From a virus (lineage: Duplodnaviria; Caudoviricetes), in the IMG/VR virus record IMGVR_UViG_3300034357_000413, positions 1 through 49,456 of that record: 49,456 nucleotides of DNA. One strand, given 5' to 3'. Both the position numbers and the translations under genes were made by a program. Within the stretch, counting starts at the first letter, position 1; each line of letters starts with the position of its first letter. The notes under the pieces are model-generated. The model worked only from the letters and a program-made list of their open reading frames with translations, made no database searches and was not told the origin of the DNA. Positions 10,083-49,456 of the stretch are shown in pieces.

Positions 10083-10511
10083 ATGCGAATCAAGTTAGCG
10101 TCCTATCGCAGGCTGATAGTAGGCAGGCAGGCAGATGTTGAAACAGCGATGCGCGCCGTGACGCGCGACTACGGAGACGGCTGGGTCGAGGTTGATCACA
10201 GACATCCTGGCTACCCGCCCAGCAAAGTCACGGCCCAACCAACAGAATCACTGCCCCATCGCGACTCGGTTGGCTGGCTTGAGAAAGCCAAGAACTTCGC
10301 CATCGCATCTGCCCAGCACGTTGCGGCCGGGATGCCAACGTGCAGCGACGAAGAAATCATTCGACGACACGACATTTGTATGGGTTGCGAGTTCTTCAAC
10401 GACAACTCATGCGGCAAGTGCGGATGCCCAATTGCGCGGGAAAAGAAGTTTATCTCCAAACTCGCGTGGGCCGATCAGTCCTGTCCTGTTGGAAAGTGGG
10501 GACCGACGTGA
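10083..10511 (+). CDS. Small protein with a C-terminal Cys cluster (probable metal-binding domain)
   Basis: RHDICMGCEFF...CGKCGC...KLAWADQSCPVGKW; start moved to ATG 10083. Confidence 0.7.
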   Translation: MRIKLASYRRLIVGRQADVETAMRAVTRDYGDGWVEVDHRHPGYPPSKVTAQPTESLPHRDSVGWLEKAKNFAIASAQHVAAGMPTCSDEEIIRRHDICMGCEFFNDNSCGKCGCPIAREKKFISKLAWADQSCPVGKWGPT

Positions 10512-11770
10512 AAAAGTACGTCACAACGCTGAACACTGGCCGGAACGTACTTCACGAAAACGCGAGGGCGTCTCTTCGCGAGGCCGCAAGGAGATGGGGT
10601 GCCGACTACGTTGAGTTGCTGACGGTGCGGTCGCCGGAACCGAGGACGCCATACCACGAAAAGATTCATATCGACGAGCACTTCGGAGACAACTGCCGGG
10701 TACTGTATTATGACGGTGATGTTGTAGTTCGATCTGACTGCCCGTCGCCATTTGATATAGTCCCGCCGGGGCAGTTCGGCCTTGTTCGGAGCCACTACCC
10801 ATCGCACGCCGGGTCAACTCGCCACGTTGAGAGAATGATTCCAGGTTTTGCCTCGAAGCACGGCGTAACGCTCGACTGCAAGGAGGAGTACCCGAACACT
10901 GGAATGATCTTGTTCGACACTTCATCACACTGCTGCGTCTTTGCTGAAGCGAGGCGAATGCGAGATGAGTGCGGCTGGCAAGATGATTGGGCTTTGGCTG
11001 ACCAGGGGTTTCTCTCCGTCGCCGCCAAGAGGACGAACGCCGACATCTTCTGGATGCCTCCCATGCTTCAGTATGCCGGCCAGGACTTGTGGGCTGGATG
11101 GGAGCCGACAATGCACACCCTCGGCTATCACTTCTGCGGCCCGATAGACAAGTCGATAGCGATCCCCAGAACCGTCTGGGACGACCTCGGACCCGCGAGA
11201 TATACGCCGAGTGGAGTTCGGAGATGGGAGAACGGCAAGCCGTTTGGCCTGAATGGCTTCGATGAGGTTCCGTTCTTCATTCGAGAAGTGTCGAAAGTGA
11301 GGCGGGGGAGGATTGTCGAAGTCGGGTGCTACCTCGGAGGCTTCACTTGGTACGGTGCGCAAATAGCCAGGGACAACTACTCAACGTGGCAGTGCGTCGA
11401 TCACTGGGGCGGGTCGTCAGACCTTTCGTCCAATGACTGGGAGTCCGTCTACGCCGGGTTCCTAGAGAACATGCGTGAATCGCGTCTTGACAGATTCGTT
11501 GAAGTTCAGCGAACGACGAGTGTTGAGGCAGCCGCAAAGACGCCCGACGGGTCAATCGACTTGGTCTTCATCGACGGCGATCACTCTTACGATCAGTGCC
11601 GCAACGACATCGAAGCGTGGTTGCCGAAAGTGAAACACGGCGGCGTGATTCTGGGACACGACTACGGGCCGAATCACCCCGGCGTGATCCAGGCCGTGGG
11701 TGATGTTCTTGATGGGCCTGACGAGACAAGTCCAGGGTCGTTTGCGATATGGAAGAAGGTCATCAAATGA
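10508..11770 (+). CDS. GT-A glycosyltransferase (GT8-like) fused to a class I SAM methyltransferase (Methyltransf_24-like)
   Basis: YYDGDVVV (DxD), NTGMIL, DQGFL; then VEVGCYLGG, DLVFIDGDHSY, GGVILGHDY; GTG start overlaps the upstream stop. Confidence 0.8.
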   Translation: MKKYVTTLNTGRNVLHENARASLREAARRWGADYVELLTVRSPEPRTPYHEKIHIDEHFGDNCRVLYYDGDVVVRSDCPSPFDIVPPGQFGLVRSHYPSHAGSTRHVERMIPGFASKHGVTLDCKEEYPNTGMILFDTSSHCCVFAEARRMRDECGWQDDWALADQGFLSVAAKRTNADIFWMPPMLQYAGQDLWAGWEPTMHTLGYHFCGPIDKSIAIPRTVWDDLGPARYTPSGVRRWENGKPFGLNGFDEVPFFIREVSKVRRGRIVEVGCYLGGFTWYGAQIARDNYSTWQCVDHWGGSSDLSSNDWESVYAGFLENMRESRLDRFVEVQRTTSVEAAAKTPDGSIDLVFIDGDHSYDQCRNDIEAWLPKVKHGGVILGHDYGPNHPGVIQAVGDVLDGPDETSPGSFAIWKKVIK

Positions 11771-13086
11771 AAGACTTCTTTGACCGCGTTGTCGTGATTT
11801 CGCTGCGGCGACGAGCCGACAGGATGAGACGTTTCTCGGCGAGGGTTGCAGCCTGCGACTGGCCTTTTGCGGAGCCAAAGACATTTGACGCAGTCGACGG
11901 AAACGCCGTCCCATGCCCCAGCCAGTGGAAGTCCGGCGGCGGCGCTTACGGTTGCCAGCAATCACACCTGCGCGTCCTGCAAAACGCCCTGATGGACGGT
12001 GTCGAGAGGCTTCTTGTCATGGAGGACGATGCAGAGTTTCGCAGCACGTTCGGTGCCGATGCAGAGGCATTCGTAAAAAACGTCCCTGCCGACTGGGAGT
12101 GTCTTATGATCGGCGGGCAACACATGACCCCTGGCATTCCTGTGTCCGATGGCATTGTTCGCTGCAAGAACACTCAGCGAACCCACTGCTACGCGGTCAC
12201 TCGCGAAGGCATGGCGACTCTGGCGAAACTCTGGGCAGAGGGCGTGAACCACATCGATTGGGATATGGGGCCGTGCCTTGGGAAGCGAGGTAAGACATAC
12301 GCACCGTCATTGTTCTTGGCCGGGCAGGCTTCGTCGCAGAGCGACATCAGTGGCCGAAGAAACCCAACGCAGTTCTGGACGCCTCCTCGCGAGTCCCTGC
12401 CGCTCCTGTGGCTCCAGGCTCCACGCGACGTTGCCGAGCAAATGATGGAGTACGGATGCCACTACGGGGCAGACCTTGACAATGAAGGCAACGACGTTGG
12501 GTTAAATCGCGCCTTCCCTTCTCCCGGCGTTTACACCGGTGGAATAAAGAAGTTCATTGGACACGTCACCTGGGAGTGCGAGTCATTCGTCGATAAGCCT
12601 GGGATCGCTACGATCTGGCACCCTAACGCGACTGAAGCCTGTGCCGAATCGTTGCTGGCTGACTGCGCCCCTGCCGTGATCAAGGCAGATACTTTTGACC
12701 AGGCTAGCGAGATGGCGTCAGCACTTTTCCCCGAACTATTCTCGCTTCGGTCGACGCCGGCGAAACCGCCGATTCTGTTGCTGAAGACCCCTAGGAAGAT
12801 CGTCGAGTCGCTCCGAGATACGAGGCTCGTCCATACCGGAAACTGGCGCGACAAAGATACTGGCATAGATAACGGACTGGCGGCAATCATCGGCGAAGGA
12901 AAGACGTGCCTCCGAGCGTGGCATTCCGTTCTGGAAAGAGAGGCCAACTGGATGAACTCTGCCGTGGCCGTGTGGCATCCATCGGCGACCATAGAACTCG
13001 CCGCTACGGCAGGAAGGCGGGTTGTCGTTATAGAGGCCGAAGACTTTGAGCAGGCACGGCAGCAAGTAGAAGCTGCGATGCTATAA
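11767..13086 (+). CDS. Glycosyltransferase family 25-like protein with a duplicated C-terminal domain
   Basis: VVISLRRRADR, DAVDG, GCQQSH, LVMEDDA, THCYAV motifs. Confidence 0.8.
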   Translation: MKDFFDRVVVISLRRRADRMRRFSARVAACDWPFAEPKTFDAVDGNAVPCPSQWKSGGGAYGCQQSHLRVLQNALMDGVERLLVMEDDAEFRSTFGADAEAFVKNVPADWECLMIGGQHMTPGIPVSDGIVRCKNTQRTHCYAVTREGMATLAKLWAEGVNHIDWDMGPCLGKRGKTYAPSLFLAGQASSQSDISGRRNPTQFWTPPRESLPLLWLQAPRDVAEQMMEYGCHYGADLDNEGNDVGLNRAFPSPGVYTGGIKKFIGHVTWECESFVDKPGIATIWHPNATEACAESLLADCAPAVIKADTFDQASEMASALFPELFSLRSTPAKPPILLLKTPRKIVESLRDTRLVHTGNWRDKDTGIDNGLAAIIGEGKTCLRAWHSVLEREANWMNSAVAVWHPSATIELAATAGRRVVVIEAEDFEQARQQVEAAML

Positions 13087-21737: not shown

Positions 21738-22286
21738 ATGGCAAAGTTGAAGGATCAGGCAATCGGTTCGTGGGAGGCCGCTGCCGTGGCCGGCGTCCAC
21801 TGGACGCAGCCGGCCGTCATGGCGAAGAAAGGGCTGATCACCTCCCGGCAGATCAAGAGCCCCACGGCGACCGGCACCGACCGGGTCTTCTCCCTCTACT
21901 CCCTGGCTCAGATCGACGCCGACTATCACGACTACGAGGACGTCCAGGCGACCCGCACCCGCCGGCGCCCCCGCGGCTATCTGCACCTCCGGCCGGCGGC
22001 GGTCAAGAAGCTCTCGGCGCTCCCCGTGAAGATCGCTTTCGACGACGCCGTCGGGGCCGGCGAGGCCGCGACCATCATGGGCTGTCACTGGACGTGGCCG
22101 CCCCGGCTCGCCAGGGCCGGGAAGATCGAGGGCCGCGTTGTCCACAACGGCCGAGCCGGCACAGCGTCTGACCGACTCTGGATTTTCTCGCGATTGAGTT
22201 GCGAACGTAACGCCAGTGAGGCGAAGAAGTTAGTTCGATCAGGCACGAAGGTCGGACGCCCGCGCCGGTCGCTCCAGAAAAAATAA
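21738..22286 (+). CDS. Tandem helix-turn-helix DNA-binding protein
   Basis: Internal duplication EAAAVAGVHWT...RVFSLYS / EAATIMGCHWT...RLWIFS; GGAGGAG SD before ATG 21738; divergent from int. Confidence 0.65.
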   Translation: MAKLKDQAIGSWEAAAVAGVHWTQPAVMAKKGLITSRQIKSPTATGTDRVFSLYSLAQIDADYHDYEDVQATRTRRRPRGYLHLRPAAVKKLSALPVKIAFDDAVGAGEAATIMGCHWTWPPRLARAGKIEGRVVHNGRAGTASDRLWIFSRLSCERNASEAKKLVRSGTKVGRPRRSLQKK

Positions 22287-30825: not shown

Positions 30826-31037
30826 GCCCGAAGCCGAAGAGAATCCTCCTGGATCAAGACGTTTTTCACCTGGAGTGCGTCGATGACTTGCGGTGCGACT
30901 CCTACGTTGACGTGAGGATCGACACGATTCCTCATAGGAAGGATGACCCGGACTACTCGGAGTCGCCGGAGCTTCTAAGGAAGGTGGCTGTGTGGCTCTT
31001 GAGAGCGGCTGAATGGCTGGAGGGGGAGCAGGCATGA
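30822..31037 (+). CDS. Hypothetical protein
   Basis: MSPKPKRILL...; ATGA overlaps at both ends. Confidence 0.6.
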   Translation: MSPKPKRILLDQDVFHLECVDDLRCDSYVDVRIDTIPHRKDDPDYSESPELLRKVAVWLLRAAEWLEGEQA

Positions 31038-33178
31038 AGTACATCAGCATTTGCTCGGGGATAGAAGCGGCATCTACCGCATGGCACGGCCTGGGCTGGA
31101 CGCCTCTGGCGTTCAGCGAGATTGAGCCGTTTCCGTCGGCCGTGCTTGCCGAACGCTACCCGTCGGCTCCGAACCTCGGAGACATGAGCAAGTACCTTGA
31201 GTGGCCGGAGGAGCTGCTTGCGGAGTGCGACCTCCTCGTAGGTGGAACGCCGTGCCAAGCGTTTTCTGTCGCGGGGCTACGAAAGAGTCTTGATGACGAT
31301 CGCGGGAATCTCTCGCTGGTCTATGTCCAAATGTTTCACCACATTAACGAGGTAAGAAAGCGTCATGGAAGACAGCCAGCAATTGCTCTTTGGGAAAACG
31401 TCCCTGGAGTTCTCAGCACCAAAGACAACGCCTTCGGCTGCTTCATCAGCGGCCTCCTCGGGGTCGATGACACCGTTGAAGTTGAAGGCGGGAAGTGGCC
31501 TAAAGCAGGCTTTCTCGGTAGCGAAACCGTCCGAGTGGGTTATCGAGTCCTCGATGCCCAATATTTTGCCGTGGCTCAAAGGCGTCGGCGAGTCTTTCTC
31601 GTTGCCGTGCCTTGTGAGCTTGTCTCAAGTCTTGGAGAACGGGCCTGTCCCTCAGAGATACTTTCTCTCCGAGAAAGCGTGCTCGGGAATCCTCCGGCGC
31701 GCGGAGAAGCGCGGCAAGCAGTTGCCGGAAGCGTTGCGGAGCGCGCTGCAAGCGGTGGTGAGCCATACCACCTTGACCGAGCCATGTTCAACCAAGGAGT
31801 GAACGCCCAGTACGAGCCTCAGATCACCGATGACGGCGTGGCGGCAAGCATGGTGGCTCGAGGGCCGGCGGCCGTGATGTGGAGCGCCAGCGATCAAGCA
31901 AACGCCGAGAGGCTCGTCGATCACGCAGGGACACTTAACTGCAATCTTGGTCAACGTGGCGGATGGATTGCACCGAGCGTGGCCTTCGGCGGCAACCGCA
32001 CCAGCGGGCCGCTGGATGTGGCTACGAGCTGCCTCGAGAACGGGTCGCCGCACGGCAGGATGGACTTCGCGAGCGAGACGTTTGTGGTGAACGGTCATCC
32101 AGACCCCGCCTACGCTATTTCCGCTGGCAAGCAGGGCGAGGGCGGTGTGTTTGGAAGTGGACGTGACTCGCAGGATACGTTTGCGGTCGTTGCCTTCCAT
32201 CCCACTCAAGACCCGATAAGCAGCGTGGACGGATCGACGCACGCGATGGGCTGCGGCTTGAAGGGCGGGTGCTGCACGCAGGCGGTCGCCTTCACCAAAT
32301 CCAAGCGCGCCCAAAGCGCCACCGATGACGAGTCGTGGGTTCCTGGCGAAGTCGCTCCGACTCAGAATCAGTTCGATGTCGGGGATACACGGGCGACGAC
32401 GGTGGTGGCGTTCAACACCTGGGGTGGAGAGCCAAGGGCAGATCGACCCAATGGTGGCTTCTACGTTGAGGAAAACGCCGAGGCATCGAAGACTTTGGAT
32501 AGCCAAGGAGGACTCAACCCGTCAGCCTCGCAGGGGGGGACGGTGGTGGCGTATGGTCTTTCGACAACGGTAACTCCAAAGTTCGCACTTGAGCTTTCGC
32601 CAACTATTGCGACTCCAAGCCCTAGCGGTGGCGGCCAGCCGCAGTGCGTGGCGTTCACGAAGAACAGCCGCGACGAGGTTCGTCAGATCGATGGAGACGG
32701 CCAGATCGCTGGGGCGTTGCCTGCGGAGATGGGGATGCACCAGACGAACTATCTGGCGTTAACCAACCGCTCTCGAGGCGGCGTAAAAGTCCCGGAGGTG
32801 GTGAAGGACGGAGTCACCCCCGCGTTAACCAACCCAGGCAACGGCGGCCGAGCGGATGCCGTGAATGTCCTCGCGGACGCCCCAGTTCAAGTTCAGTGGG
32901 CATCTGGTGGCGGCAAAGTAGAAAACCCTACGATGCAGGCTCTTCGCACTAGCGCAGAGCACAACTACCAATTCGTGCGCCAGGCCATGCAAGTGCGCCG
33001 CCTCACGCCCACCGAATGTTGCCGATTGCAGGGCTTCCCCGACGAGCACTGCGACATCACCTTCCGCAAGAAGCCAGCCGCCGACGGGCCGAAGTACCGC
33101 GCCCTCGGCAACAGCATGGCCGTCCCGTGCATGGCGTGGCTGGGATGGCGAATTAAAAAGGCTACAGAGCAAGAGTAA
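31034..33178 (+). CDS. DNA (cytosine-5)-methyltransferase with an expanded variable region
   Basis: Motifs I (CSGIEA), IV (GGTPCQAFS), VI (WENVPG), VIII (QRRRRVF), IX (RRLTPTECCRLQGFP), X (ALGNS). Confidence 0.93.
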   Translation: MKYISICSGIEAASTAWHGLGWTPLAFSEIEPFPSAVLAERYPSAPNLGDMSKYLEWPEELLAECDLLVGGTPCQAFSVAGLRKSLDDDRGNLSLVYVQMFHHINEVRKRHGRQPAIALWENVPGVLSTKDNAFGCFISGLLGVDDTVEVEGGKWPKAGFLGSETVRVGYRVLDAQYFAVAQRRRRVFLVAVPCELVSSLGERACPSEILSLRESVLGNPPARGEARQAVAGSVAERAASGGEPYHLDRAMFNQGVNAQYEPQITDDGVAASMVARGPAAVMWSASDQANAERLVDHAGTLNCNLGQRGGWIAPSVAFGGNRTSGPLDVATSCLENGSPHGRMDFASETFVVNGHPDPAYAISAGKQGEGGVFGSGRDSQDTFAVVAFHPTQDPISSVDGSTHAMGCGLKGGCCTQAVAFTKSKRAQSATDDESWVPGEVAPTQNQFDVGDTRATTVVAFNTWGGEPRADRPNGGFYVEENAEASKTLDSQGGLNPSASQGGTVVAYGLSTTVTPKFALELSPTIATPSPSGGGQPQCVAFTKNSRDEVRQIDGDGQIAGALPAEMGMHQTNYLALTNRSRGGVKVPEVVKDGVTPALTNPGNGGRADAVNVLADAPVQVQWASGGGKVENPTMQALRTSAEHNYQFVRQAMQVRRLTPTECCRLQGFPDEHCDITFRKKPAADGPKYRALGNSMAVPCMAWLGWRIKKATEQE
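31365..31802 (+). CDS. Nested alternative-frame ORF resembling the M.EcoHK31I beta polypeptide
   Basis: SLSQVLE...YFLSEKACSGILRRAEKRGKQLPEAL; GAGG upstream of the ATG; wholly inside the MTase gene in another frame. Confidence 0.6.
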   Translation: MEDSQQLLFGKTSLEFSAPKTTPSAASSAASSGSMTPLKLKAGSGLKQAFSVAKPSEWVIESSMPNILPWLKGVGESFSLPCLVSLSQVLENGPVPQRYFLSEKACSGILRRAEKRGKQLPEALRSALQAVVSHTTLTEPCSTKE

Positions 33179-35543: not shown

Positions 35544-35902
35544 GATACGTCAAGGTAACTGCGACGGTGAGCGAACCGCGAAACTCAGGCGGCTACGGCG
35601 ATGAACGCCGCAGGGTGATCGGTAAGGCTTCGATCACTCCGTCCGGTGGGAGCCGCGATGTTGGCGGCGAGATCGCAGACCTAATCGGGTTTCTGTGCTT
35701 CTGCGACAAGAGCCTGGACAGGAAAGAGATCGCCGCCGCTGTTGTCGAGAGAATTGGCGACCTACCGGAGGTCTACGAGACGGCAGCGGAGCGGGCCGCA
35801 AACTCCGCGGTCGTCACGCTCTCCAGGGGCTTCGACGAGCGCTTCGACACATTGCATAGGAACTTTGTTCGGCTCTGCGAAAGGGTGGACGAACTGAAAT
35901 GA
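35540..35902 (+). CDS. Hypothetical protein
   Basis: MRYVKVTATV...; ATGA overlaps at both ends. Confidence 0.55.
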   Translation: MRYVKVTATVSEPRNSGGYGDERRRVIGKASITPSGGSRDVGGEIADLIGFLCFCDKSLDRKEIAAAVVERIGDLPEVYETAAERAANSAVVTLSRGFDERFDTLHRNFVRLCERVDELK

Positions 35903-36528
35903 TCGAAGAATCCTGGCTCGTCGAGTACGTTCTGCGAGCCAAGGCCGCCGGCGCGAAAACGGCTATCGACGTGGGTGCGAACGTCGGTGAGTTCTCGCGT
36001 CTGCTGGCCGAACACTTCGACCATGTCGTGGCCGTCGAGCCCGACCCCAGGGCGTTTGCCATCTTGGAGAAGTCCGTCCCGTCGAATGTGGTGTGCCTGC
36101 GGGCCGCCGTAGCCGCGGGCAGCGGTGATATCGACTTCCACCTCAGACCCCATACGGTGCAGTCGTCGCTTCTGCTCACGCACCCGATCGGCGCGGCAGA
36201 TCAGACCGAAGCCCCGGTGATCGAGACGATACGCACCCCGTGCCTGTCGCTGGACGATGTCTTAGCCCAGGCCCGCAGCCGGTGGGACGATGCCGGCCGG
36301 CTGTTTGTGAAGGTCGACGTCGAGGGGGCCGAGGGCCAAGTGCTGGCCGGTGCTTTCGATGCCGCCTACCGGGATGCCGCGTGGCTGATTGAGATTCACG
36401 ACCGCGAGCGGGTGGTCGAAGCGGCTCTGGCCCTTCTGGGATTCGACGAGATCGAAGTCATCCCGCATCCGTACCCCTCGGCGCATCCCAAGCATATGTG
36501 GTTCTACGCAGACAGGGGTGACGAATGA
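35899..36528 (+). CDS. FkbM-family methyltransferase
   Basis: IDVGANVG, VAVEP, SLDD, VKVDVEGAE..VLAG, IEIH. Confidence 0.88.
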   Translation: MIEESWLVEYVLRAKAAGAKTAIDVGANVGEFSRLLAEHFDHVVAVEPDPRAFAILEKSVPSNVVCLRAAVAAGSGDIDFHLRPHTVQSSLLLTHPIGAADQTEAPVIETIRTPCLSLDDVLAQARSRWDDAGRLFVKVDVEGAEGQVLAGAFDAAYRDAAWLIEIHDRERVVEAALALLGFDEIEVIPHPYPSAHPKHMWFYADRGDE

Positions 36529-40494: not shown

Positions 40495-40796
40495 AAGACT
40501 ACGTCGCCCGCCGCGGCGGCTTACGGCTGGCGATGCACGAGCGTCTCCGCGACCAGTTGGTCGAGGCCGCCGTGGCCGACTGGCCCGACGGGTGCGACCC
40601 CGACAAGATCGAGGACGTCGTGATCGCCCGCCTCCGCATCCGCGTGCGTGAGCAGTACGGATCAATAATGGCGATGCTCCTGATCAGCATCTTGGCGAAC
40701 GTCATCGGCCGGCTGATCGTCCAGTGGTGGCGCGAGCGGCACAGCCACCGCGTTCTCATGTCTGGGTGGTACGCGCAGGCGAGGAAGTCTGATTGA
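40467..40796 (+). CDS. Membrane protein with a C-terminal TM helix
   Basis: YGSIMAMLLISILANVIGRLIVQWW. Confidence 0.6.
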   Translation: MLDATYRPLKDYVARRGGLRLAMHERLRDQLVEAAVADWPDGCDPDKIEDVVIARLRIRVREQYGSIMAMLLISILANVIGRLIVQWWRERHSHRVLMSGWYAQARKSD

Positions 40797-41374
40797 CCCT
40801 GCCGAATCAAAAGTATGACGTGATCCTCGTCGATCCCCCGTGGTCTTACTACGGCCAGCAAGCCAAGTGGGGCGCGGCGGCGAAGTTCTATAAGACGATG
40901 AGCGACGATGACCTGATGTCGCTTCCCGTTGGCTGGATCGCTAAGGACAACACGGTCCTTTTTTGCTGGGCGACCGGACCGCGCCTCGATTTCGCCATTC
41001 GCCTCGTCGAGCACTGGGGGTTCGTCTATCGAGGCATGGGTTTCGTGTGGGTCAAGTCCACAAAGGCCGGCGTGCCGATCGGCGCCCGCGGAGTTCGGCC
41101 AAGCATCGTAAAGCCCACGACGGAGTTTGTGATCGCCGCCTCGATGGTCGCCAAGGGCCGCCCGATGCCGCTGGACGACGAATCGGTGGCTCAGGTTGTC
41201 TTGGCCCCGGTCACTGCCCATAGCCAGAAACCAGACGAAGTTCAGGCTAGGATCGAGAGGCTCTACCCTTCTGCTTCTCGGCTGGAAATGTTCGCCAGGC
41301 GTCGAAGAGCGGGATGGGACGCATGGGGCGACGAGGTTTCCACGGTCGGGGCTCCCGTTTCTACGGACGGGTGA
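40793..41374 (+). CDS. MT-A70-family N6-adenine methyltransferase
   Basis: YDVILVDPPW, LFCWAT, WGF.Y, WVK, HSQKP, LEMFAR, GWDAWGDE; TTG start. Confidence 0.9.
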   Translation: MTLPNQKYDVILVDPPWSYYGQQAKWGAAAKFYKTMSDDDLMSLPVGWIAKDNTVLFCWATGPRLDFAIRLVEHWGFVYRGMGFVWVKSTKAGVPIGARGVRPSIVKPTTEFVIAASMVAKGRPMPLDDESVAQVVLAPVTAHSQKPDEVQARIERLYPSASRLEMFARRRRAGWDAWGDEVSTVGAPVSTDG

Positions 41375-41375
41375 T

Positions 41376-41684
41376 ATGCCATACCGCATCCCTACTTTCC
41401 GCCCTCGCCAGATGCCTGCCAAGCAGCGCCCGACGGCTGCCGCCCGCGGCTACTGCTCGGCAGCATGGCGGCGTACCAGGCTGGCAGTGATCGCCCGCGA
41501 CGGTGGCGTCTGTCAGCTCTGCGGAGAGCTGGTGCAGGGGGACGACCGAGACGCTCATGTCGATCACGTCATCGAGAAGGCTGCCGGCGGCGGCGATGAG
41601 CTATCTAACCTTCGCCTGGTTCATCGCTCGTGCCACTCGAAGCGGCACGCTTCCGACCGCCTTGGCGGGCGGCTGCGTTCTTAG
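41376..41684 (+). CDS. HNH endonuclease (terminase-associated type)
   Basis: AAARGY...W...RD...CQLC...HVDH...NL...HRSCH; start moved to ATG 41376. Confidence 0.88.
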   Translation: MPYRIPTFRPRQMPAKQRPTAAARGYCSAAWRRTRLAVIARDGGVCQLCGELVQGDDRDAHVDHVIEKAAGGGDELSNLRLVHRSCHSKRHASDRLGGRLRS

Positions 41685-41937
41685 CCTTCGCCGTCCCTCC
41701 CTTGCTCCCCCACTCCTTGACGCGAGCCTGGTGGGCCTTGGAATAGTAGGGGTAGTAGTGCTGCTTCATGGCGGCGATCGCCGCTCTCCGGATCAGCCGG
41801 ATGCCGAACAGCTCTGCGAACACGTCAGCCCCGCTTTCGGCCGCTCGGGCCGCCGACCGATATACCCCGCGCTTCGAGCACCCCAGGGCAACCATCGCAT
41901 CCTCGACGGTCAGGTAGTCGTCTGTCTCGATCTTCAT
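41605..41937 (-). CDS. Excisionase/MerR-like HTH protein with a basic tail
   Basis: YLTVEDAMVALGCSKRGVY; start at ATG 41937. Confidence 0.6.
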   Translation of the reverse strand: MKIETDDYLTVEDAMVALGCSKRGVYRSAARAAESGADVFAELFGIRLIRRAAIAAMKQHYYPYYSKAHQARVKEWGSKGGTAKAKNAAARQGGRKRAASSGTSDEPGEG

Positions 41938-42191
41938 CGCCGCACCACTCCGATCACGCTGTCGCCTAGTTCTGTCAGTGCCGCGGCCACGCGCCGCAGC
42001 GGTCGATCTGGCTGCTGGGCCTCTGGTTGCCACGCAGGGGGCTGCTGCCACGCTGCCTGAGCCTGCGGCTGCCAGACGGTTGTTACGGCCGGGGGGGCCG
42101 CCGGCGGCCGCTCCGCGAGAACCTCGCGGAGCAGCACGACGGTGACCACAACCAGAACGGCCCGCCAGGTGTCGCGAACCATGCCAATCAT
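41934..42191 (-). CDS. Small membrane-anchored Pro/Gln-rich protein
   Basis: AVLVVVTVVLL then WQP repeats; ATGA overlaps. Confidence 0.55.
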   Translation of the reverse strand: MIGMVRDTWRAVLVVVTVVLLREVLAERPPAAPPAVTTVWQPQAQAAWQQPPAWQPEAQQPDRPLRRVAAALTELGDSVIGVVRR

Positions 42192-42466
42192 ACGCAGACA
42201 CTCCCCTCGGCGGCTACGGCTTCCTCGCGGATGGCCGCGGCCTGGCCCAGGCATCGGCGGGCGTATTCCTCGATCTCGCCGGCCGCCCAGTCGGCAGCCT
42301 GGAAGCGGGTAGCGAAACAGTGCTCGAACGAGTGCAGCACTCTGGGGGTTCCGCCGATGGCCGGCCTCACGAGCTTGACCCCCTCGAACTCCTTGACCTC
42401 GTGGACCTCCTGGATGATGGCTCGGCAGCCCTGGTGGCTATCGAAATGAACAAACGCGGCAAACAT
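42188..42466 (-). CDS. Hypothetical protein
   Basis: AGGAG SD before ATG 42466 (MFAAFVHF...). Confidence 0.6.
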   Translation of the reverse strand: MFAAFVHFDSHQGCRAIIQEVHEVKEFEGVKLVRPAIGGTPRVLHSFEHCFATRFQAADWAAGEIEEYARRCLGQAAAIREEAVAAEGSVCV

Positions 42467-42512
42467 GATTCTCGTCTCCTGTAGGTTTATCGTCTTTCTG
42501 TCGCCCTGTAGG

Positions 42513-42686
42513 CTACTCTTTCCGCCGTCGTTTTCCAGCCCGTTTCGCCGCACGGGCGTTGATCTTGTCGATGGCCTCCTGCGCCACCCTGTTCATGGCC
42601 TCTCGGGCTCCCCTCTGGCTGGCGATGCCGCTCTTGACCAGAAACGTCAGCCAGCCGGCCTCGTATCCGGTGATGCGGTTATTCAC
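42513..42686 (-). CDS. 57-aa basic protein (absent from the ORF track)
   Basis: GTG overlaps the upstream TGA; MNNRITGYEAGWLTFLVKSG...RAGKRRRKE; AGGAGG SD. Confidence 0.55.
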   Translation of the reverse strand: MNNRITGYEAGWLTFLVKSGIASQRGAREAMNRVAQEAIDKINARAAKRAGKRRRKE

Positions 42687-43036
42687 TGGAGCCCCTCCTC
42701 TGCGATCTTTCGCTTCATTGCATTGGCGAACTTCGCCGCCCGATCGGCCGTCATCCCGACTCCAATGAAAGAGACGCGGCTAGTGACGGCGACCTTGGCA
42801 GCCCCAGCGATCACGACCTCCACGACCTCCACCGCAGCTTCCAGGGTGTCCTCCGCGCCGAGAATCTTCCATGAGTAGTTCGACCCGTCTGCCGGCTTGT
42901 CGAGCCGCAGATAGGGGCGGTACTGCATCTTCACGCCACCAGTCAACTGGCGGTTGATCTCGGCAACGACCTTGCGGCCCTGCCGGACAACCCACTCGCT
43001 TTTCCGTCCAGGCTTGAGTTTCACTGTCAGTTTCAT
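42683..43036 (-). CDS. Hypothetical protein
   Basis: GAGGAG SD; member of the leftward small-gene array. Confidence 0.65.
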   Translation of the reverse strand: MKLTVKLKPGRKSEWVVRQGRKVVAEINRQLTGGVKMQYRPYLRLDKPADGSNYSWKILGAEDTLEAAVEVVEVVIAGAAKVAVTSRVSFIGVGMTADRAAKFANAMKRKIAEEGLQ

Positions 43037-43101
43037 CTCTCTCTCCTCGGGTTTCGCCGCACGGGGGCGGCAGGGTGTAGATCGAGCACTGGTTGCTACG
43101 G

Positions 43102-43368
43102 TCAGGGGTTGACGAACAGGCTCGCGTCGGCGGCTCGGCCCGTCCAGAACGCATCCATGAAAGCATCGCCGTCCTCGAATGAACCATTGACCTTCGCCCA
43201 GGCATCTCCCTGCCGGTGGCCGATCTGGAGCGTCGAGAACGCAGCCCCCTCGGGGAAGTGCTCGGCCGCGAAAGCGCGGATCGCTTCGAGCACCTTGTCG
43301 CCGTCATACATATCACCGTTGGCGAACTCCATCGCGGTCGGGCAGATCGAAATACTGATTCGTCTCAT
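43102..43368 (-). CDS. Hypothetical protein
   Basis: GAGGAG SD; array member. Confidence 0.65.
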   Translation of the reverse strand: MRRISISICPTAMEFANGDMYDGDKVLEAIRAFAAEHFPEGAAFSTLQIGHRQGDAWAKVNGSFEDGDAFMDAFWTGRAADASLFVNP

Positions 43369-43481
43369 GGTCGCTCTCCTCGTCTCTAGGGTTTAGGTTT
43401 CCACGTTCCGGGGTCGTCATCGGACGGCCCATCCCATCGCCCCGGTCGCGTTTCCGCGGACGGGGGTCAGGGGCGGGTCGT

Positions 43482-44078
43482 CTAGGCCGTTGCCTTCTTC
43501 TCCCGCAGATGCTTTCGAGCCGCCTTCCGCAGGTCGGCCTCGACGGCCGCATCGGGCCTCGGCTCCTCATGGTCGAGCGTGAACGTGACGCGGGCAGTTC
43601 CGCGGTAGAGTTTCACGCAGTCCAAGCCGATCAGTTCCTGCCACCCGCCGCGGAATCGGAGTTTGCCGGCCGCCCCCGGCATCCGCTCGCAGTCGAGGTA
43701 GTCGATCACTCGCTGCGGCAGGTCGCACAGCGGCACAACCTTCCCGCCGCGACGGACGGCGACGAGCAGCCCGCCAAGGATCGACGGACGAAAAGCCGCG
43801 GTGTACCGCTCCTTCCGTTTCGTCGCGCGGGGTACGAAGAACTCACCCAGCGGGTCGCAGCCGGTCGCGGCAACGTCCCGCGAGTAGTCGAGCCACGACC
43901 GGTCGATCTCGTCGGCGGTCGGGAGATCATCCGCACCGACCTCTTCATGGTCGCCGTCGCTGTAGTTGTCCACGGTGTAGGTGCCGTCATCGTCCATCCA
44001 GTAGCTGGACTTGTGCCAGCCGACCGGGCAGTCGCGCTCCCCGCAATTCCACGCCACGCTCGCAATAATGTCTGCCAT
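43482..44078 (-). CDS. Hypothetical protein
   Basis: 198 aa; acidic N-half with C-x4-C...H, basic C-half; array member. Confidence 0.65.
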   Translation of the reverse strand: MADIIASVAWNCGERDCPVGWHKSSYWMDDDGTYTVDNYSDGDHEEVGADDLPTADEIDRSWLDYSRDVAATGCDPLGEFFVPRATKRKERYTAAFRPSILGGLLVAVRRGGKVVPLCDLPQRVIDYLDCERMPGAAGKLRFRGGWQELIGLDCVKLYRGTARVTFTLDHEEPRPDAAVEADLRKAARKHLREKKATA

Positions 44079-44177
44079 CGTTCGTCCCTTTCGTATGGTT
44101 CCCCCGTCCGGGGGTCTATAGTTTCCACTAGTCCATCCCCGCCGGCAACGTGCCGGGCGGGGGCATCGTCGTCGTCC

Positions 44178-44675
44178 CTACGGGCGGATGCCCGTCCCCT
44201 CCAGCTCCTCGCGCACCAACCGGCAAACCTCCTCCGCGATCGGCTCACCAATGTCCGCGTAGGTGTCGAGGTGGTGCCACTCATCGGGCAGCTCCTCGCC
44301 GGCTGCCACGGCTGCCACGATCTCGCCGGCCAGACGGCGGGCCGTCCGCGCCGCCGACGTCGCCTCCCGGCGGATCGCCGCCGTGATCACCGCACCGTCG
44401 CGGTCGCGGCCAGCGATCTCTCGGTAGCCTCGGGCATCGGCCACGGCCTGCCGGAGCCCCTCGCGGGCATCGGCATCCTCCAGGCTGCCGGCCAACCGCT
44501 CGGCCACCTCCAGGGCGATCGCCGGCATCGGCCGCCGACCGCGGTAGGTGTCGATCTCGACCCAGATCAGCGGCACGTCGTGACCGGCGGCCCGCCACGC
44601 CCGCACCTCATCCATCTCAGCCATGACGGCGTTTGCCTCGGCTAGCTCGATCATCGCGTTTCCCATGTATGACAT
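44178..44675 (-). CDS. Hypothetical protein
   Basis: GAGGAAAC SD/motif before the ATG; array member. Confidence 0.65.
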   Translation of the reverse strand: MSYMGNAMIELAEANAVMAEMDEVRAWRAAGHDVPLIWVEIDTYRGRRPMPAIALEVAERLAGSLEDADAREGLRQAVADARGYREIAGRDRDGAVITAAIRREATSAARTARRLAGEIVAAVAAGEELPDEWHHLDTYADIGEPIAEEVCRLVREELEGTGIRP

Positions 44676-44739
44676 CGTCGCGTTTCCTCGTTCGGGGTTC
44701 TCGTTTCCACAATCCGGGGGCCACGCTGGCCCGCCGGCA

Positions 44740-44931
44740 TCACTCCCAGGCTCGCACCTTCACCGTCTCGGGGAAGAAGCCGTCATCGCTCCATGCGATT
44801 CGAGCGTCGTCCTCCGCGTCCTCCGCGGTCGGCTCGGCCGACCACCACTCCAGATCGATCTCCTCCACCTCTCCGAATGCTGGCGAGAATCGCAGCACTA
44901 TTCCCTCGCAATACCATCGTGCTCGTGCCAT
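44740..44931 (-). CDS. Small acidic hypothetical protein
   Basis: 63 aa, Glu/Asp-rich; GAGGAAAC SD/motif. Confidence 0.6.
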   Translation of the reverse strand: MARARWYCEGIVLRFSPAFGEVEEIDLEWWSAEPTAEDAEDDARIAWSDDGFFPETVKVRAWE

Positions 44932-45001
44932 CGTCGTTTCCTCGTTCGGGGTGTCCTATCGTTTCGCCGGCCGGGGGCAACGCGCCCGCCGGCCGGGGTC
45001 G

Positions 45002-45277
45002 TCACTCGTCGCGCTGCTCCATCCTCCGCAGGAGGTGCTCCATCTGGTCGATGACGTCGCGGATATCACCCAGAATCATCCGCTCGACCTCGGGGCCGGT
45101 CGGGCCGTTGCCGTCCCAGTTTCGGATCGCGCCTGCCCAGTGAATCAGCAGCACGGCCGCCGCCGCTTCCGCCGAATCCTCCGCGAGGCATGCGCCGCCC
45201 ATCTGATCGATGGCTGTCTTAGCCACGCTGAAAATCGGGTGATGCATCGGGTCGGAGTTATTCATCGTCTCGCTCAT
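45002..45277 (-). CDS. Hypothetical protein
   Basis: ATG 45277 directly after a GTGGAAAC motif; array member. Confidence 0.6.
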   Translation of the reverse strand: MSETMNNSDPMHHPIFSVAKTAIDQMGGACLAEDSAEAAAAVLLIHWAGAIRNWDGNGPTGPEVERMILGDIRDVIDQMEHLLRRMEQRDE

Positions 45278-45376
45278 GGTTTCCACGCTCCAGGGGTTCT
45301 CGGGTTTCCATCCACGGGGCCACGCTGGCCGCCGACTCGGCCCCGCCCGCGGGCGACGGGGCCGGCTCGGGGGTCA

Positions 45377-45613
45377 TCAGTAGGCTCCGACCTCCTGCGT
45401 TGCCCATGCCCGCAGGCCGCCGACTACGTCAGGCATACGGGCCAGGAGCCGCCGGCAGGCATCGGCTCGTGATCGCCAGCGGCGGGGCTCGACGAGCCTG
45501 CCTGGGCCGCTCCAGTAGGATTCGGCATCCACGATCAGGTCGCGCAGTGCATGGCCGGTTTCGGCGGCCAGGCGTTCGCATTCGGTCAGCAGGGCAGTCT
45601 CGGTCGGGGTCAT
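45377..45613 (-). CDS. Hypothetical protein
   Basis: GAGGAAACGAGAC-ATG (MTPTETALL...). Confidence 0.6.
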   Translation of the reverse strand: MTPTETALLTECERLAAETGHALRDLIVDAESYWSGPGRLVEPRRWRSRADACRRLLARMPDVVGGLRAWATQEVGAY

Positions 45614-45692
45614 GTCTCGTTTCCTCTCTCTGGTTCTCACGGTCGGGGGCGACCGGCGAAGTTGCCGGCCGCCGGGTTTCCTCGGTCGGGGG

Positions 45693-46112
45693 TCAGGCTC
45701 CGATGCTCTCGCGGCTCGCCGCCAGGCCGCGGGTGATATAGGCGTCGTGCGCAGCCGATGCGGCGGCCAGCATCGACGGCAACTTCGCGGCGAGCGATCC
45801 GGCGACCGAATCGCTGGAGAACCCCCGGCCCCGCCGCTGGTAGTCGGCACCAAGCATCACGCCGGCCGCGATCCCCTCGGAGTATCCGGCGAGCGTGGAG
45901 GCCGGCGGATCGCTCTCCATCCCCTCCGCGAAGCCGCGCACGATCAGCGCCTTGGCTGCCGTGACGCACGACCGCTCGCGCTTCTCCACCTTCAGTGCCT
46001 CGCGGAGCCGGTGCGGCTCGCGGTGGCCGGATGCGTCCATCATGTAGGCCACCGCATCCCATGCGGCGCCGATCGTGCGGCGCTCGGCCGCGGTGTAGCT
46101 CCAGTTGCTCAT
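45693..46112 (-). CDS. Hypothetical protein
   Basis: GAGGAAACGAGAG-ATG (MSNWSYT...). Confidence 0.6.
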   Translation of the reverse strand: MSNWSYTAAERRTIGAAWDAVAYMMDASGHREPHRLREALKVEKRERSCVTAAKALIVRGFAEGMESDPPASTLAGYSEGIAAGVMLGADYQRRGRGFSSDSVAGSLAAKLPSMLAAASAAHDAYITRGLAASRESIGA

Positions 46113-46196
46113 CTCTCGTTTCCTCTCTGGGGGTCGTCTCGTTTCCACGTTCCAGGGGGCCGGCAACGTGCCGGCCCCCATGTCTCCATCGGTAGC

Positions 46197-46853
46197 CTAT
46201 TCGGCCAGTACCGTCGCGCGGGCCTGGTGATCGCCGGTCATCGCCGCCGTGACCATCTCCTCCGAGGGCAGCGGGGCGCGGCCCATCACCCGCTGGTATT
46301 GCCTGCGGTTATCACGGTGCCGTTCCAGGGCCGAGAGCATCACCGCCCGCCGCAGGGTCGCGGGGATTGTCTGCCACTGGAAACGCTCCAGGCCACGACG
46401 CATCGACCGGCAGACCGTCGATGCCGTGTCCGAGACGTGGAGACGGTCGACCACCCGATCGACGCCAGCGACGTCGGCCTCGGTGAGCGCCATGACCGGC
46501 AGCCTGCCAACGCGGGCGATCAGCCCCGGCACCGCTCGTGCCGTCGCGAGATTCACGACGTTCCCCTCGGGCATCGTCCACGGGCGAGCCTCGGCGGCCC
46601 GCTGGTCGCGGCCGATCCGGCGCTGACGGGCCGCGGCTCGGGCATTCTCCGCGGCATCACCAGGGGTGCCGAAGACGTGCCGCAGGCGGGCCGCGGTCGC
46701 GGTGATCTCCCGGCGGGTGTCGTGAGTCTGGCACGCGAACCGCCGCCGCTGGTTGTGCCTGGCGGGCAGCTCCCGCAGCACCGTGACGGTCGCGAATCGG
46801 CTGCCGATCCTCACGACGGCCTGCATTCCGATTGTGATGTCATTCTGTCGCAT
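46197..46853 (-). CDS. Hypothetical Arg-rich protein
   Basis: GAGGAAACGAGCC-ATG; first gene after the promoter at 46962. Confidence 0.65.
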   Translation of the reverse strand: MRQNDITIGMQAVVRIGSRFATVTVLRELPARHNQRRRFACQTHDTRREITATAARLRHVFGTPGDAAENARAAARQRRIGRDQRAAEARPWTMPEGNVVNLATARAVPGLIARVGRLPVMALTEADVAGVDRVVDRLHVSDTASTVCRSMRRGLERFQWQTIPATLRRAVMLSALERHRDNRRQYQRVMGRAPLPSEEMVTAAMTGDHQARATVLAE

Positions 46854-46934
46854 GGCTCGTTTCCTCTCTCGGGGGGGTCTTAGGTTGTAGGTTATTCGTT
46901 TCCACGCTCGGGGCTCCGTTGCCCTCGATGACCA

Positions 46935-46962
46935 AGGATAGCATCGTCGTGGATCGGGTCAA
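46935..46962 (-). promoter_or_regulatory. Sigma70-type promoter for the leftward array
   Basis: TTGACC-N16-TATCCT with extended -10 TG and an AT-rich upstream element. Confidence 0.6.
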
Positions 46963-47060
46963 GTCTAAAATAATATCCTCGGGTTTCTCGCGGGTTTCTA
47001 CGATCGGGGGTTTCGACGGACAGTTGGGAAACGAGAAACGGAGGGTTTCCACGGCCGGGC

Positions 47061-47279
47061 TCACTGATCATTCCCCGGTAGCGTGATCCCTGCCACGTCG
47101 CATCGAATCACCATCGCGGTCGAGTTGCCAGGCATCGTGAGCTTCAGCCAAACGGAGCCGCTGGTCAGGTCGATCTCATATTGGCTCTTCACGCCCCAGG
47201 CCGTTTCCAGCCACTCCATCCGCTGTTCAAATTCCGCAGCCAGCTTTTCGACGGTGGCTCGGGTTCGTTTTCGTTTCAT
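47061..47279 (-). CDS. Hypothetical protein
   Basis: GAGGAAC SD; 72 aa. Confidence 0.6.
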   Translation of the reverse strand: MKRKRTRATVEKLAAEFEQRMEWLETAWGVKSQYEIDLTSGSVWLKLTMPGNSTAMVIRCDVAGITLPGNDQ

Positions 47280-47558
47280 CGTGCGTTCCTCATGTTTCGA
47301 CGGTCGGGGGCCGGGTTCCGCTCTCCGGCCTGGTTTTTGCCATTCTGGCAGTCATAGGATGCCCCAGGAAGCCCGATCGGCCAGGTGGCCGACCGTAGAT
47401 ACCCTTGGGTTTCCATGTTCGGGGCTCGGGTTTCCACGGTCGGGTTTCCATGTTCGGGGCTCGGGTTTCCACGCTCGGGAGGGGAGCCGGGCCAGCTCGG
47501 GTTTCCATGTTCGGGGGCTCGAGTTTGCTGGCAGCTCGGGTTTCCATGTTCGGGGGTG

Positions 47559-47670
47559 GTCGCTGGTGGAGTTGGTCAGCAGGGCCGCTCGTCGCTGGTG
47601 GAGTTGGTCAGCAGGGCCGCTCGTCGCTGGTGTCACTGGTGTCGCTGGTGGAGTTGGTCAGCAGGGCCGC
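47559..47670. repeat. 30-bp direct repeat x3
   Basis: GTCGCTGGTGGAGTTGGTCAGCAGGGCCGC at 47559, 47591 and 47641, with a partial copy at 47623. Confidence 0.9.
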
Positions 47671-47675
47671 AATTG

Positions 47676-47709
47676 CAATCGGCCGCAGGGAAACCCCTGC
47701 GGCCGATTG
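47676..47709. terminator. Perfect 15-bp hairpin downstream of the gp88-like gene
   Basis: CAATCGGCCGCAGGG-AAAC-CCCTGCGGCCGATTG. Confidence 0.6.
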
Positions 47710-47723
47710 AACCGCGTTCTAGT

Positions 47724-48599
47724 TCAAGCCAGTTCTACGGTCGCAACCCCCTCGCGACGATGCTCGTCCACGAACCAATTCGCCCCCGCCGCATGATGCC
47801 GAATGAATCCCATTCGCGCCGAAGTCTCGCGGAGTTTCCTAGAGCCCTTGGCGCGAAGGGCAACACAGCGGGAGCAACCGTCGAATTCGGGGACGCGAAG
47901 GTCGTGAATATCCCCATCCACTGTATCGGCAGCAAACTCCTCCCCGCTGGTTCGGTCGCGGAATATCACTTGCGACGGAACCGCACCGTATCGGTGAAGT
48001 GGGCCGAAATAATGGCTGTCAAAAACCACCACCAAATTCACCCCTAGAGCGTTCAGTCGCTTCGCGTCAGCGTAGGTGGTGCGCTCACTTACGCTATAGG
48101 CTACATGGTAGTTTGCTGGCAACTCTCCGCGACCATATTCGGCCGCATGTTCTACGTTTTTGGTGTAATTGTAGAACGTGATGGTCGGGTGTTGCTCATA
48201 GACTTCGCGGGGGTGTTCAATGTCGGATGCTACGTTAGTTCGGCAGAATGCCCGAACATTGTCGCGGAGTGCTTTCCTCGCCAACGCCCGCAGTTCTTTC
48301 GCGAGTCGATGATAGAACCGCGCAGGATCGTAGAACCATAAACGGGTACGCTTCGTTGCTGCTTCGCGGACGGTTCTAGTAACGGTTCTCCCAGCAAACC
48401 ACAGAACACAGACGAGGATACATGCGGCCGTAGCATGCGGGCAGACATTCACAACCCCCGACCGCTTCGACGGGGCCAGTGTAACTCCCGCATTTATGAT
48501 GCGGGAACCGTCGGGGAGTTTCCGCAGTTTCGCGTTGTCGGAAAGGATAGAGCGAACGGCAGAATCAAGGGCAGCGGCGTCGATTGTTTTCGTTGTCAT
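47724..48599 (-). CDS. Gp88-like phage protein (Cys motif, probable Fe-S/metal binding)
   Basis: NAKL.K, LAP, NVCPHATAACILVC, RTNVASD, FYNYTK, DGD.HDLR motifs recalled for this family. Confidence 0.65.
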   Translation of the reverse strand: MTTKTIDAAALDSAVRSILSDNAKLRKLPDGSRIINAGVTLAPSKRSGVVNVCPHATAACILVCVLWFAGRTVTRTVREAATKRTRLWFYDPARFYHRLAKELRALARKALRDNVRAFCRTNVASDIEHPREVYEQHPTITFYNYTKNVEHAAEYGRGELPANYHVAYSVSERTTYADAKRLNALGVNLVVVFDSHYFGPLHRYGAVPSQVIFRDRTSGEEFAADTVDGDIHDLRVPEFDGCSRCVALRAKGSRKLRETSARMGFIRHHAAGANWFVDEHRREGVATVELA

Positions 48600-48626
48600 G
48601 GTTCGTAGCCTTTTCTGTGGTGGTGG

Positions 48627-48965
48627 TTATGAAATTCTGGTAACGGTGAAATTCTGCTCTTCGTTTTTGTATGTGTCGCCAACGGATGCGGAATCAAGCC
48701 ACTCTCCGAATGTAGACTCCTCCTCCTCGTCTTCGTTGAAATACTCGCGCTCGTCTTCGGGGAATCCCAGATATGAGACGGTTTCAAAAAACCCCCGCCC
48801 ACTGTCATCGCGAACGGTGAATGTCGGCTCTTCAGTCGCGAGAATCTTGCAACCGAGTTTACGGGCGGTTTCAACGCTATCGACGGTTTCAACGAACCCG
48901 CCCGCATCGTCGCGAATCTCCCACCATGTTTCTCCGTTGTCGAATATCGCCCTTGCCGTTGTCAT
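48627..48965 (-). CDS. Very acidic hypothetical protein
   Basis: GGAGGAAAC SD; EDEREYFNEDEEEES; internal duplication IRDDAGGFVETV / VRDDSGRGFFETV. Confidence 0.65.
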   Translation of the reverse strand: MTTARAIFDNGETWWEIRDDAGGFVETVDSVETARKLGCKILATEEPTFTVRDDSGRGFFETVSYLGFPEDEREYFNEDEEEESTFGEWLDSASVGDTYKNEEQNFTVTRIS

Positions 48966-48992
48966 GCTTCGTTTCCTCCGTTGGTTGTGAGA

Positions 48993-49217
48993 TTAGATAT
49001 GATTCGGAAGGTCTGCCAGAACTGTTTTCGCACATTCAATCGTTCCCGCTGCCCATTTCTCTATCGTGATCTCTCCGAATTCGGAGCATACGTCAGCATA
49101 TGAGAAGCAACCATTCCTATCATTCTTCCCCATTAGCGTTGCAAGGGTTTCGGCATCCTTGCGTTTGATGGCATCCGCCATTGCTGCGGCCCACTCATCT
49201 ACATTGAAACCGCTCAT
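48993..49217 (-). CDS. Hypothetical protein
   Basis: GGAG SD; first gene after the promoter at 49290. Confidence 0.6.
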   Translation of the reverse strand: MSGFNVDEWAAAMADAIKRKDAETLATLMGKNDRNGCFSYADVCSEFGEITIEKWAAGTIECAKTVLADLPNHI

Positions 49218-49262: not shown

Positions 49263-49290
49263 ATCATATCATCGGCACGAACGCAGTCAA
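49263..49290 (-). promoter_or_regulatory. Sigma70-type promoter
   Basis: TTGACT-N16-TATGAT with extended -10 TG. Confidence 0.65.
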
Positions 49291-49392: not shown

Positions 49393-49409
49393 AGCAAAAA
49401 CTGTGCCAA
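49393..49409 (-). promoter_or_regulatory. Sigma54 (-24/-12) consensus site
   Basis: Minus strand TTGGCAC-AGTTT-TTGCT, with exactly 10 nt between GG and GC. Confidence 0.5.
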
Positions 49410-49456
49410 GGGTAGGGAGTGCCCCGATTGTGGGGGTTAGACCAACAGACCGCCTG

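Follow-up and report, generated by a model that had tools for sequence, protein, structure and literature searches.

The IMG/VR record IMGVR_UViG_3300034357_000413 (a lake phage, Caudoviricetes; the whole virus record of 49,456 bases was analyzed and is called the window below) carries, near its right end, a leftward-read array of small genes in which an asymmetric 16-bp word built around CCCG-N6-GAAAC recurs. The word has a defined sequence and a fixed polarity, is confined to the array, sits at promoters and over ribosome-binding sites (RBSs), and is accompanied by one constant helix-turn-helix (HTH) gene, the last of the array. Judging from the sequence and from structural models, we give roughly an even chance to the reading that the word is a DNA operator, similar to the stoperators of mycobacteriophages, bound by the winged-helix protein from that last gene, which would shut the array off.

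The window contains 23 exact copies of CCCG-N6-GAAAC, all 23 on the minus strand, compared with a mean of 0.58 and a maximum of 2 in 100 dinucleotide shuffles. Twenty-two lie at 41336-47554 and one at 9514. The original prediction, made from the letters of the window alone, had counted 21 exact copies clustered in the array, all pointing one way, and none elsewhere; the clustering and the one-way orientation are borne out, but the array holds 22 (the copy at 43817 had been missed), and the copy at 9514 makes the last claim wrong by one. Likewise, not three but four exact copies lie inside coding sequence: two in antisense orientation within the 3′ end of an MT-A70 gene (41336 and 41357), one at 42542, and one at 43817 in a 198-aa gene. 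The one at 42542 is not generally conserved, with 4 of 28 homologs scoring at least 13 bits. A weight matrix derived from relatives only finds 33 window sites of at least 11 bits; all 33 are minus-strand sites, 32 belong to the array, and the outlier at 9514 falls below that threshold. Seven near-matches named earlier were all recovered by this matrix, four of them as single-mismatch copies, and the array-wide set (41336..47554, minus strand) thus stands at 22 exact and about 10 near copies. As a separate observation, the outlier adjoins 15/33-nt tandem repeats at 9007-9787, which encode Ser/Gly-rich repeats in two tail-region genes.

The consensus of 390 unique sites, taken from 27 arrays, is CCCCGA(C/A)CG(T/G)GGAAAC, followed by G or C. 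Position 0 is C in 87%, and the six spacer positions are A 65%, C 42%, C 79%, G 85%, T 51%, and G 57%. The earlier description of the word as bipartite with a free spacer is weakened by this conservation, which reaches 85%. Type I restriction-modification systems recognize two specified blocks around a nonspecific spacer; such a target, or a restriction-site decoy, was rejected because of the same conservation. The commonest copy spacings across arrays are 21, 23, and 15 nt, and spacings are too variable for an extracytoplasmic function (ECF)-type promoter built from two copies.

A tandem-motif scan of IMG/VR gave 104 stretches, of which 26 loci were kept (at least 7 same-strand copies over kilobases) and the rest dropped as short, duplicate, or chance. 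To avoid circularity, a motif-independent set of 62 loci, some of them near-duplicates, was fetched through a neighboring protein as anchor. The 399 kb downstream of the anchor hold 446 array-strand copies and 7 opposite-strand copies; the 541 kb upstream of it hold 4 and 0. Thirty-six of these loci carry 5-25 copies, 14 form a variant group considered below, 8 are distant and motif-free, 3 are close loci cut within 1.4 kb, and 1 lacks sequence downstream of the anchor. Five complete genomes hold 90 copies, 89 of them on the strand of the array, and every one falls inside the array or just beyond it. Moreover, in 120 genomes of the order of a Pirellulales bin linked to these phages, a stricter pattern occurs at 10 sites and its control at 12, on which a host regulon, a site like the FtsK-orienting polar sequences (KOPS), and a host sigma site were rejected. 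A looser 9-base pattern does exceed its reversed control in 4 of 5 bins, and a consensus-like pattern leaves 3, 1, and 1 sites outside phage contigs. The proposal of a region-wide, strand-polar, phage-specific signal kept in relatives is therefore upheld. A blastn search of INPHARED with the array gave no match. The word CCC-N7-GATTTTT was considered as a relative and rejected: its 23 loci have at most 4 copies each and encode none of this array's protein families. A dispersed chromosomal repeat at loci L179 and L195 (G004, a soil Planctomycetota bin), with CCCG-N6-GAAAC pairs in both orientations followed by GAAGCCAAT, looks unrelated.

The placement of the word is tied to promoters and to gene starts. 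Among 63 distinct sigma70-type promoters in arrays, 58 are followed by a copy no more than 70 nt past the -10 box, usually at 16-40 nt, compared with 1 of 13 promoters located before the array. At 13 of the 31 promoters with an upstream copy, that copy ends 29-32 nt before the -35 box, a regularity that shared descent could explain. In the window, promoter P2 (TTGACC-16-TATCCT; 46935..46962, minus strand) has copies that end 31 and 82 nt before its -35 and start 22 and 61 nt after its -10, and a copy precedes the start codon by 1-28 nt in 10 of the 14 array genes. Across the arrays, an ATG is found no more than 12 nt from 103 of 388 sites (background, 654/5400), with a peak at 5-6 nt, and in start-proximal copies position 9 becomes A in 57%, versus 8-9%, which yields AGGA while the word is kept. 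There is more to the word than translation: 143 of the 388 sites are more than 45 nt from any start codon, and 12 copies lie past the HTH stop codon on the array strand, antisense to late genes, at 9 of 33 loci, with 0 on the opposite strand and 0 in the next 232 kb.

Strict sense-strand polarity and the AGGA of start-proximal copies would also suit an RNA signal, in which a phage or host protein would bind the word in the transcript, in many cases just after a short hairpin, to promote antitermination, processing, or translation, in the manner of nut sites or of the start-associated sequences (SAS) of other phages. The first copy after a promoter closes a hairpin with an upstream G-run in 55% of cases (n = 33), versus 6% with shuffled flanks, and a basic 57-aa protein (42513-42686) is encoded at 27 of 30 clade I loci and 2 of 12 clade II loci. 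Swapping flanks within the class gives 45%. We read these structures as 5′ leader hairpins that borrow the C-run of the word. Other copies have no pairing excess, 392 sites share no consistent structure (top mean pair probability, 0.10), and Rfam has 0 matches in the window at the gathering score. Furthermore, some copies precede P2 by fixed distances, others lie antisense within late genes, and the sole gene that is always present has a predicted DNA-binding fold. The antisense copies and this fold favor DNA over RNA, and we regard an RNA signal as unlikely.

For the operator reading, the leading candidate reader is the product of the last array gene (41605..41937, minus strand, start codon at 41937), a 110-aa Xis/BldC-like winged-helix protein. 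It had been put forward in the original prediction, together with a second HTH protein, and the distribution of its gene supports it: the gene is present at 53 of 53 close loci with downstream DNA and at 0 of the 8 distant, motif-free loci, and five distant genomes gave one marginal match only. Searching with the protein first, all 19 metagenome loci with at least 1.5 kb upstream (28 were fetched) have at least 3 copies of the word (175 versus 1). The structural model (predicted local distance difference test [pLDDT], 77) has as its best matches, all weak, BldC-DNA, Tn916 Xis, Pukovnik Xis, RacA, and pSK1 Par. Residues A14, G19, and R27 are nearly invariant among 23 HTH sequences, and R27 is probably the counterpart of BldC Arg30. 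A sequence search of solved structures with the HTH alignment gave only designed repeat proteins and weak matches.

Several observations weigh against this reading. The fold matches are singly insignificant (top Foldseek hit BldC, E 0.26; Z 5.8-7.4, with pSK1 Par at 6.3 and Xis at 5.8), and Pfam HTH_17 scores below its cut-off (E 0.001), beside an atlas HTH_17 cluster at 0.88. The HTH proteins fall into two types, A and B, which are about 20-37% identical and have different recognition helices, yet accompany the same motif: the motif matrices of 27 A-only loci (473 sites) and 7 B-only loci (83 sites) are indistinguishable, two complete genomes have type B only, and A and B swap between near-identical phages, with the reservation that the long branches L150, L153, and L155 may be mis-cut rows. 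Since both types accompany one motif and replace each other, the motif is more conserved than its proposed reader. The co-occurrence of word and HTH gene is confounded by kinship and near-duplicate loci. Copy spacings of 15, 21, and 23 nt also differ from the 9-10 bp head-to-tail repeat described for BldC (PMC5859096, in excerpt), the post-promoter hairpins hint at a role in RNA, and the fixed spacing upstream of -35 would also suit an activator. As to the two types, BldC reads mainly one Arg-guanine contact and an AT-rich minor groove (PMC5859096, in excerpt); the word holds a comparable CG-N3-AAA, so by analogy A and B could both bind it.

The second choice is the tandem winged-helix protein encoded beside the integrase (21738..22286, plus strand), weakly TraN-like, which would read the DNA word as a two-domain monomeric immunity repressor and would come closest to the logic of L5. 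It is conserved in all five complete genomes (38-51% identity), all of which are temperate by the integrase test; its model (pLDDT, 83.5) has two domains; and a two-domain monomer suits an asymmetric site (PMC9283540, in excerpt). But there is no site near its own gene, the integrase, the replication operon, or the upstream promoter P1, which an immunity repressor should cover, and it is equally conserved in the clade with the variant word. Its conservation stands, but the earlier suggestion that it reads the word is weakened, and we hold it quite unlikely. The structural models of both candidates are Xis-like winged helices that match known folds weakly; a profile comparison of the two gave a probability of 9.6%, and the Cluster A repressor structure is absent among the fold matches listed for either.

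How the word might work as an operator is best seen from the order of elements, which from the right end is P1 without a motif, a short GP88 operon (found in some relatives), the satellite, 3-6 clustered copies, P2, the cassettes, and the HTH gene. We propose that host sigma70 promoters would drive inward reading of the array early in infection and that the HTH protein would build up late because its gene is transcribed last. It would load first on the tandem cluster, which could act as a sink and as a strong roadblock to read-through from P1, and would then cover the copies at about +10 to +35 of promoters and at gene starts. The array would be repressed by promoter occlusion and by a one-way block to elongation, amounting to delayed negative feedback after an early burst. 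At loci L025, L060, and L069, an HTH gene lies directly after the cluster, an arrangement that would give direct autoregulation. Terminal copies would halt antisense run-through into the late genes, and the repeats may secondarily aid cassette exchange.

A positive role, as an activator site or a piece of a nonstandard promoter, would account for the copies that end about 31 and 82 nt before the P2 -35 in many phages. It also draws on a sister clade of 14 loci, which has a tandem version of the array HTH with different helices and, in 14 of 14, no array-strand copy of the main word. Consensus sigma54 promoters, 2-4 per array, are found at 13 of these 14 loci and at 0 of 39 main-clade loci, at starts where the main clade has motif pairs. 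Against this, near-consensus sigma70 promoters lie 16-46 nt upstream of most first copies, copies embed the RBS, the word is not enriched in the 120 host-order genomes, and no phage sigma region 2 was found in any of the five complete genomes. A positive element is thus improbable in our view. The use of sigma54 at phage early genes seems unusual. The near-perfect -24/-12 promoters lie mostly 19-61 nt before starts (loci L103, L104, L107, L108, L112, L113, L117, L119, L134, L150, L151, and L153), and three genomes have a further sigma54 promoter in the replication region.

Most of the 14 sister loci have a variant word, A-CCCG(T/C)CCGTG(G/A)(C/T)AA, in 17-bp tandem repeats, 26 of 26 copies on one strand in five tandem-HTH genomes. 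It also occurs inside the HTH linker, and from the sequence the tandem protein looks as if two HTH genes had fused across an intergenic site. In the tandem-HTH genes of L104, L108, L112, L117, L134, and L150, the variant word in the linker between the two domains corresponds to Asp/Ala-Pro-Ser-Val. Downstream in L134, on the strand opposite the array, a divergent operon beside the satellite includes a gene for a small AAA-type ATPase with a visible P-loop.

The remaining alternative is a role in DNA handling, whether as homology for cassette shuffling, as a centromere-like coat on the first-entering DNA end, or as a polar fork barrier. In 54% and 39% of 549 cases, an alignment between arrays stops no more than 25 nt from a copy, against a 21% background; 111 distinct open reading frame (ORF) groups follow copies; fold neighbors of the HTH protein include pSK1 Par and RacA; and the array adjoins both satellites that are unrelated between phages and the likely cohesive-end site (cos). 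The breakpoint signal, however, is confounded by gene boundaries and by the shared word itself, and roles of this kind do not need tight coupling to promoters and start codons. We consider DNA handling very unlikely as the primary function.

Right-end DNA enters the cell first in lambda, and we carry this over here as an assumption. A broader and distinctly tentative reading, which we doubt more than we believe, would join these observations: planctomycete phages may close off the DNA end that goes in first by means of a silencing module that is portable and times itself, in which an Xis/BldC-like protein starts from a tandem cluster and sets up one-way roadblocks across freely shuffling, unknown early genes. 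Divergent paralogs would be interchangeable on one word, and the sister lineage would have swapped word, reader (a fused tandem HTH with the word in its own linker), and sigma factor (sigma54) as a unit. If true, stoperator logic would have arisen a second time, independently and from another family of proteins.

Comparison with known systems bears the analogy out in part. The stoperators of Cluster A mycobacteriophages (L5 and TipsytheTRex; PMC9283540, in excerpt) are, like the array word, more than 20 asymmetric, transcription-oriented sites in a temperate phage, located at promoters and in short intergenic spaces; the original prediction had drawn this analogy. The array word is a different 16-bp sequence, and whereas the excerpted account gives stoperators a genome-wide spread, the word is confined to one 6-11 kb array and absent from the integrase/immunity region. 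The Cluster A reader is described there as a 183-aa immunity repressor with two domains (HTH and Stoperator domain), in contrast to a single winged helix of 90-110 aa for the array candidate. By analogy, the word would work like L5 stoperators, but it is not classed as one because it is not spread genome-wide and its candidate reader differs.

The nearest functional precedent for the candidate reader is D29 Gp36, a MerR-like phage protein that represses genes via direct repeats (PMC12266134, in excerpt). As far as the excerpted accounts of Gp36, BldC, and Xis-like regulators go (PMC12266134, PMC5859096), the candidate shares with them the predicted fold class and the recognition-helix Arg and would share direct-repeat targets and, for Gp36, the repression of phage genes. 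Unlike them, it has a long extra C-terminal helix, and where they use short repeats at few loci, the array has one 16-bp word at nearly every gene. The SAS and extended SAS (ESAS) of Cluster K phages, whose function is unproven according to the excerpted source (PMC3203893), also place an asymmetric repeat over the RBS of numerous small genes, in some cases preceded by an inverted repeat. RBS-containing repeats before starts occur here too, but the word differs in sequence, and its copies are not nearly all at gene starts: many are far from them (the 143 sites above), clustered, upstream of promoters, or antisense. Finally, the promoter-early stem-loop (PeSL) cassettes of T4-type phages (PMC2839356, in excerpt) likewise punctuate a hyperplastic region of shuffling small genes with repeats, but PeSL is a sigma70 promoter plus terminator stem-loop, and the array word is neither, its promoters being separate and upstream. 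A literature search returned no paper on such a motif in planctomycete phages, and three 15-mers were absent among the matches listed. "Undescribed," as the system had been called, thus holds for this sequence as far as searched, but the kind of system is known.

Particular to these phages are the candidate reader, the paralog swap, and the variant module with sigma54 promoters. The 110-aa protein, the 16-bp site, the paralog swap, and the variant word with its tandem reader make a small, directly testable set. If the operator reading is true, stoperator-like control would no longer be confined to mycobacteriophages, and the protein might serve as a compact repressor with orientation dependence in Planctomycetota, which have few genetic tools. 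In any case, the word flags a pool of early genes: 186 ORFs after copies fall into 111 groups, 109 of them without a Pfam match. The two exceptions match LPD1/LPD5 and HTH_17, and the sole informative match is an array gene with LPD1 and LPD5 polyvalent-protein domains (L025:2402-3424).

In the window, the elements of the right end, all on the minus strand unless noted, begin with a single exact match to the sigma54 -24/-12 consensus (49394..49408), which alone is not above chance, and promoter P1 (TTGACT-16-TATGAT; 49263..49290), with no motif copy nearby. The motif-free upstream operon (47724..49217) has genes of 74 and 112 aa and GP88 (PF17338), and after the GP88 gene comes a 15-bp stem-loop without a U-tract (47676..47709). 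The satellite, three 32-nt copies at 47559..47672, lies directly upstream of the six-copy cluster (47409..47554; start-to-start distances 21, 14, 21, 36, and 39), which is as it had been described; most related arrays open with a cluster of 3-6. The satellites are GC-rich and T-poor, with phage-specific units of about 4-70 nt that are unrelated between relatives, and many assemblies break there. A Chi-like octamer in the satellite was rejected, since its three window copies do not keep their position in relatives, as was a Rho-loading role, since some phages have C-rich units and others G-rich ones. The first gene after the cluster encodes 72 aa (47061..47279), with a motif copy 14 nt upstream. 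Nine cassette genes follow P2 (42683..46853), each with a copy 1-28 nt before the start codon, mostly in pairs 21-25 nt apart. A GC hairpin with a CGT loop, its 3′ arm running into a motif copy, lies at 46155..46179; a related element precedes 54 of 446 site groups, and hairpins in general do not mark site groups (18%, against a background of 14%). Next come three tightly coupled genes (41934..42686) whose starts lack a copy and which hold the internal copy at 42542. Past the HTH stop, a terminal motif pair (41336..41371) is antisense in the MT-A70 gene (40793-41374). None of the 13 array genes before the HTH gene has a Pfam or PHROG match, and an atlas search with the 218-aa gene gave no usable match.

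The array reads toward an HNH endonuclease gene (41376..41684, plus strand), convergent with it, which is its conserved left boundary; in relatives, the array lies between HNH and the likely cos end or the terminase small subunit gene (terS). At the other end, a conserved element (49420..49456, plus strand) contains a G-run/CAGACCGC, also read as G-run/CAGACCGCNTGTCC. Contigs end at 49450 in 6 of 8 lake runs, the other two having no coverage there; one run (X1) may be the source sample, and joints with sides of 20-21 letters were disregarded. Since contigs end there and the element sits between the array and terS in relatives, we infer that it is cos, with the array forming the right end of virion DNA.

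Pfam and PHROG scans of the window found tail and connector genes, integrase, helicases, primase, methyltransferases, MT-A70, and HNH; head genes are missing from this record. Five relatives rated complete are 70-75 kb each and temperate, with integrase in 5/5. Two array contigs are in bins titled Pirellulales and Planctomycetaceae and a third is in the bin of an unnamed bacterium, so that planctomycete bacteria are the likely hosts, a link that rests on binning. Promoters here (46935-46962, 49263-49290, and 77 matches in relatives) carry an additional (G/A)CCGAT or GACGAT block immediately ahead of the -10 box, possibly a planctomycete feature. Modification enzymes are encoded at 10340-13086, 31013-33178, 35899-36528, and 40793-41374: two methyltransferase-domain genes, a family 25 glycosyltransferase, a split-domain C5 methylase, and MT-A70.

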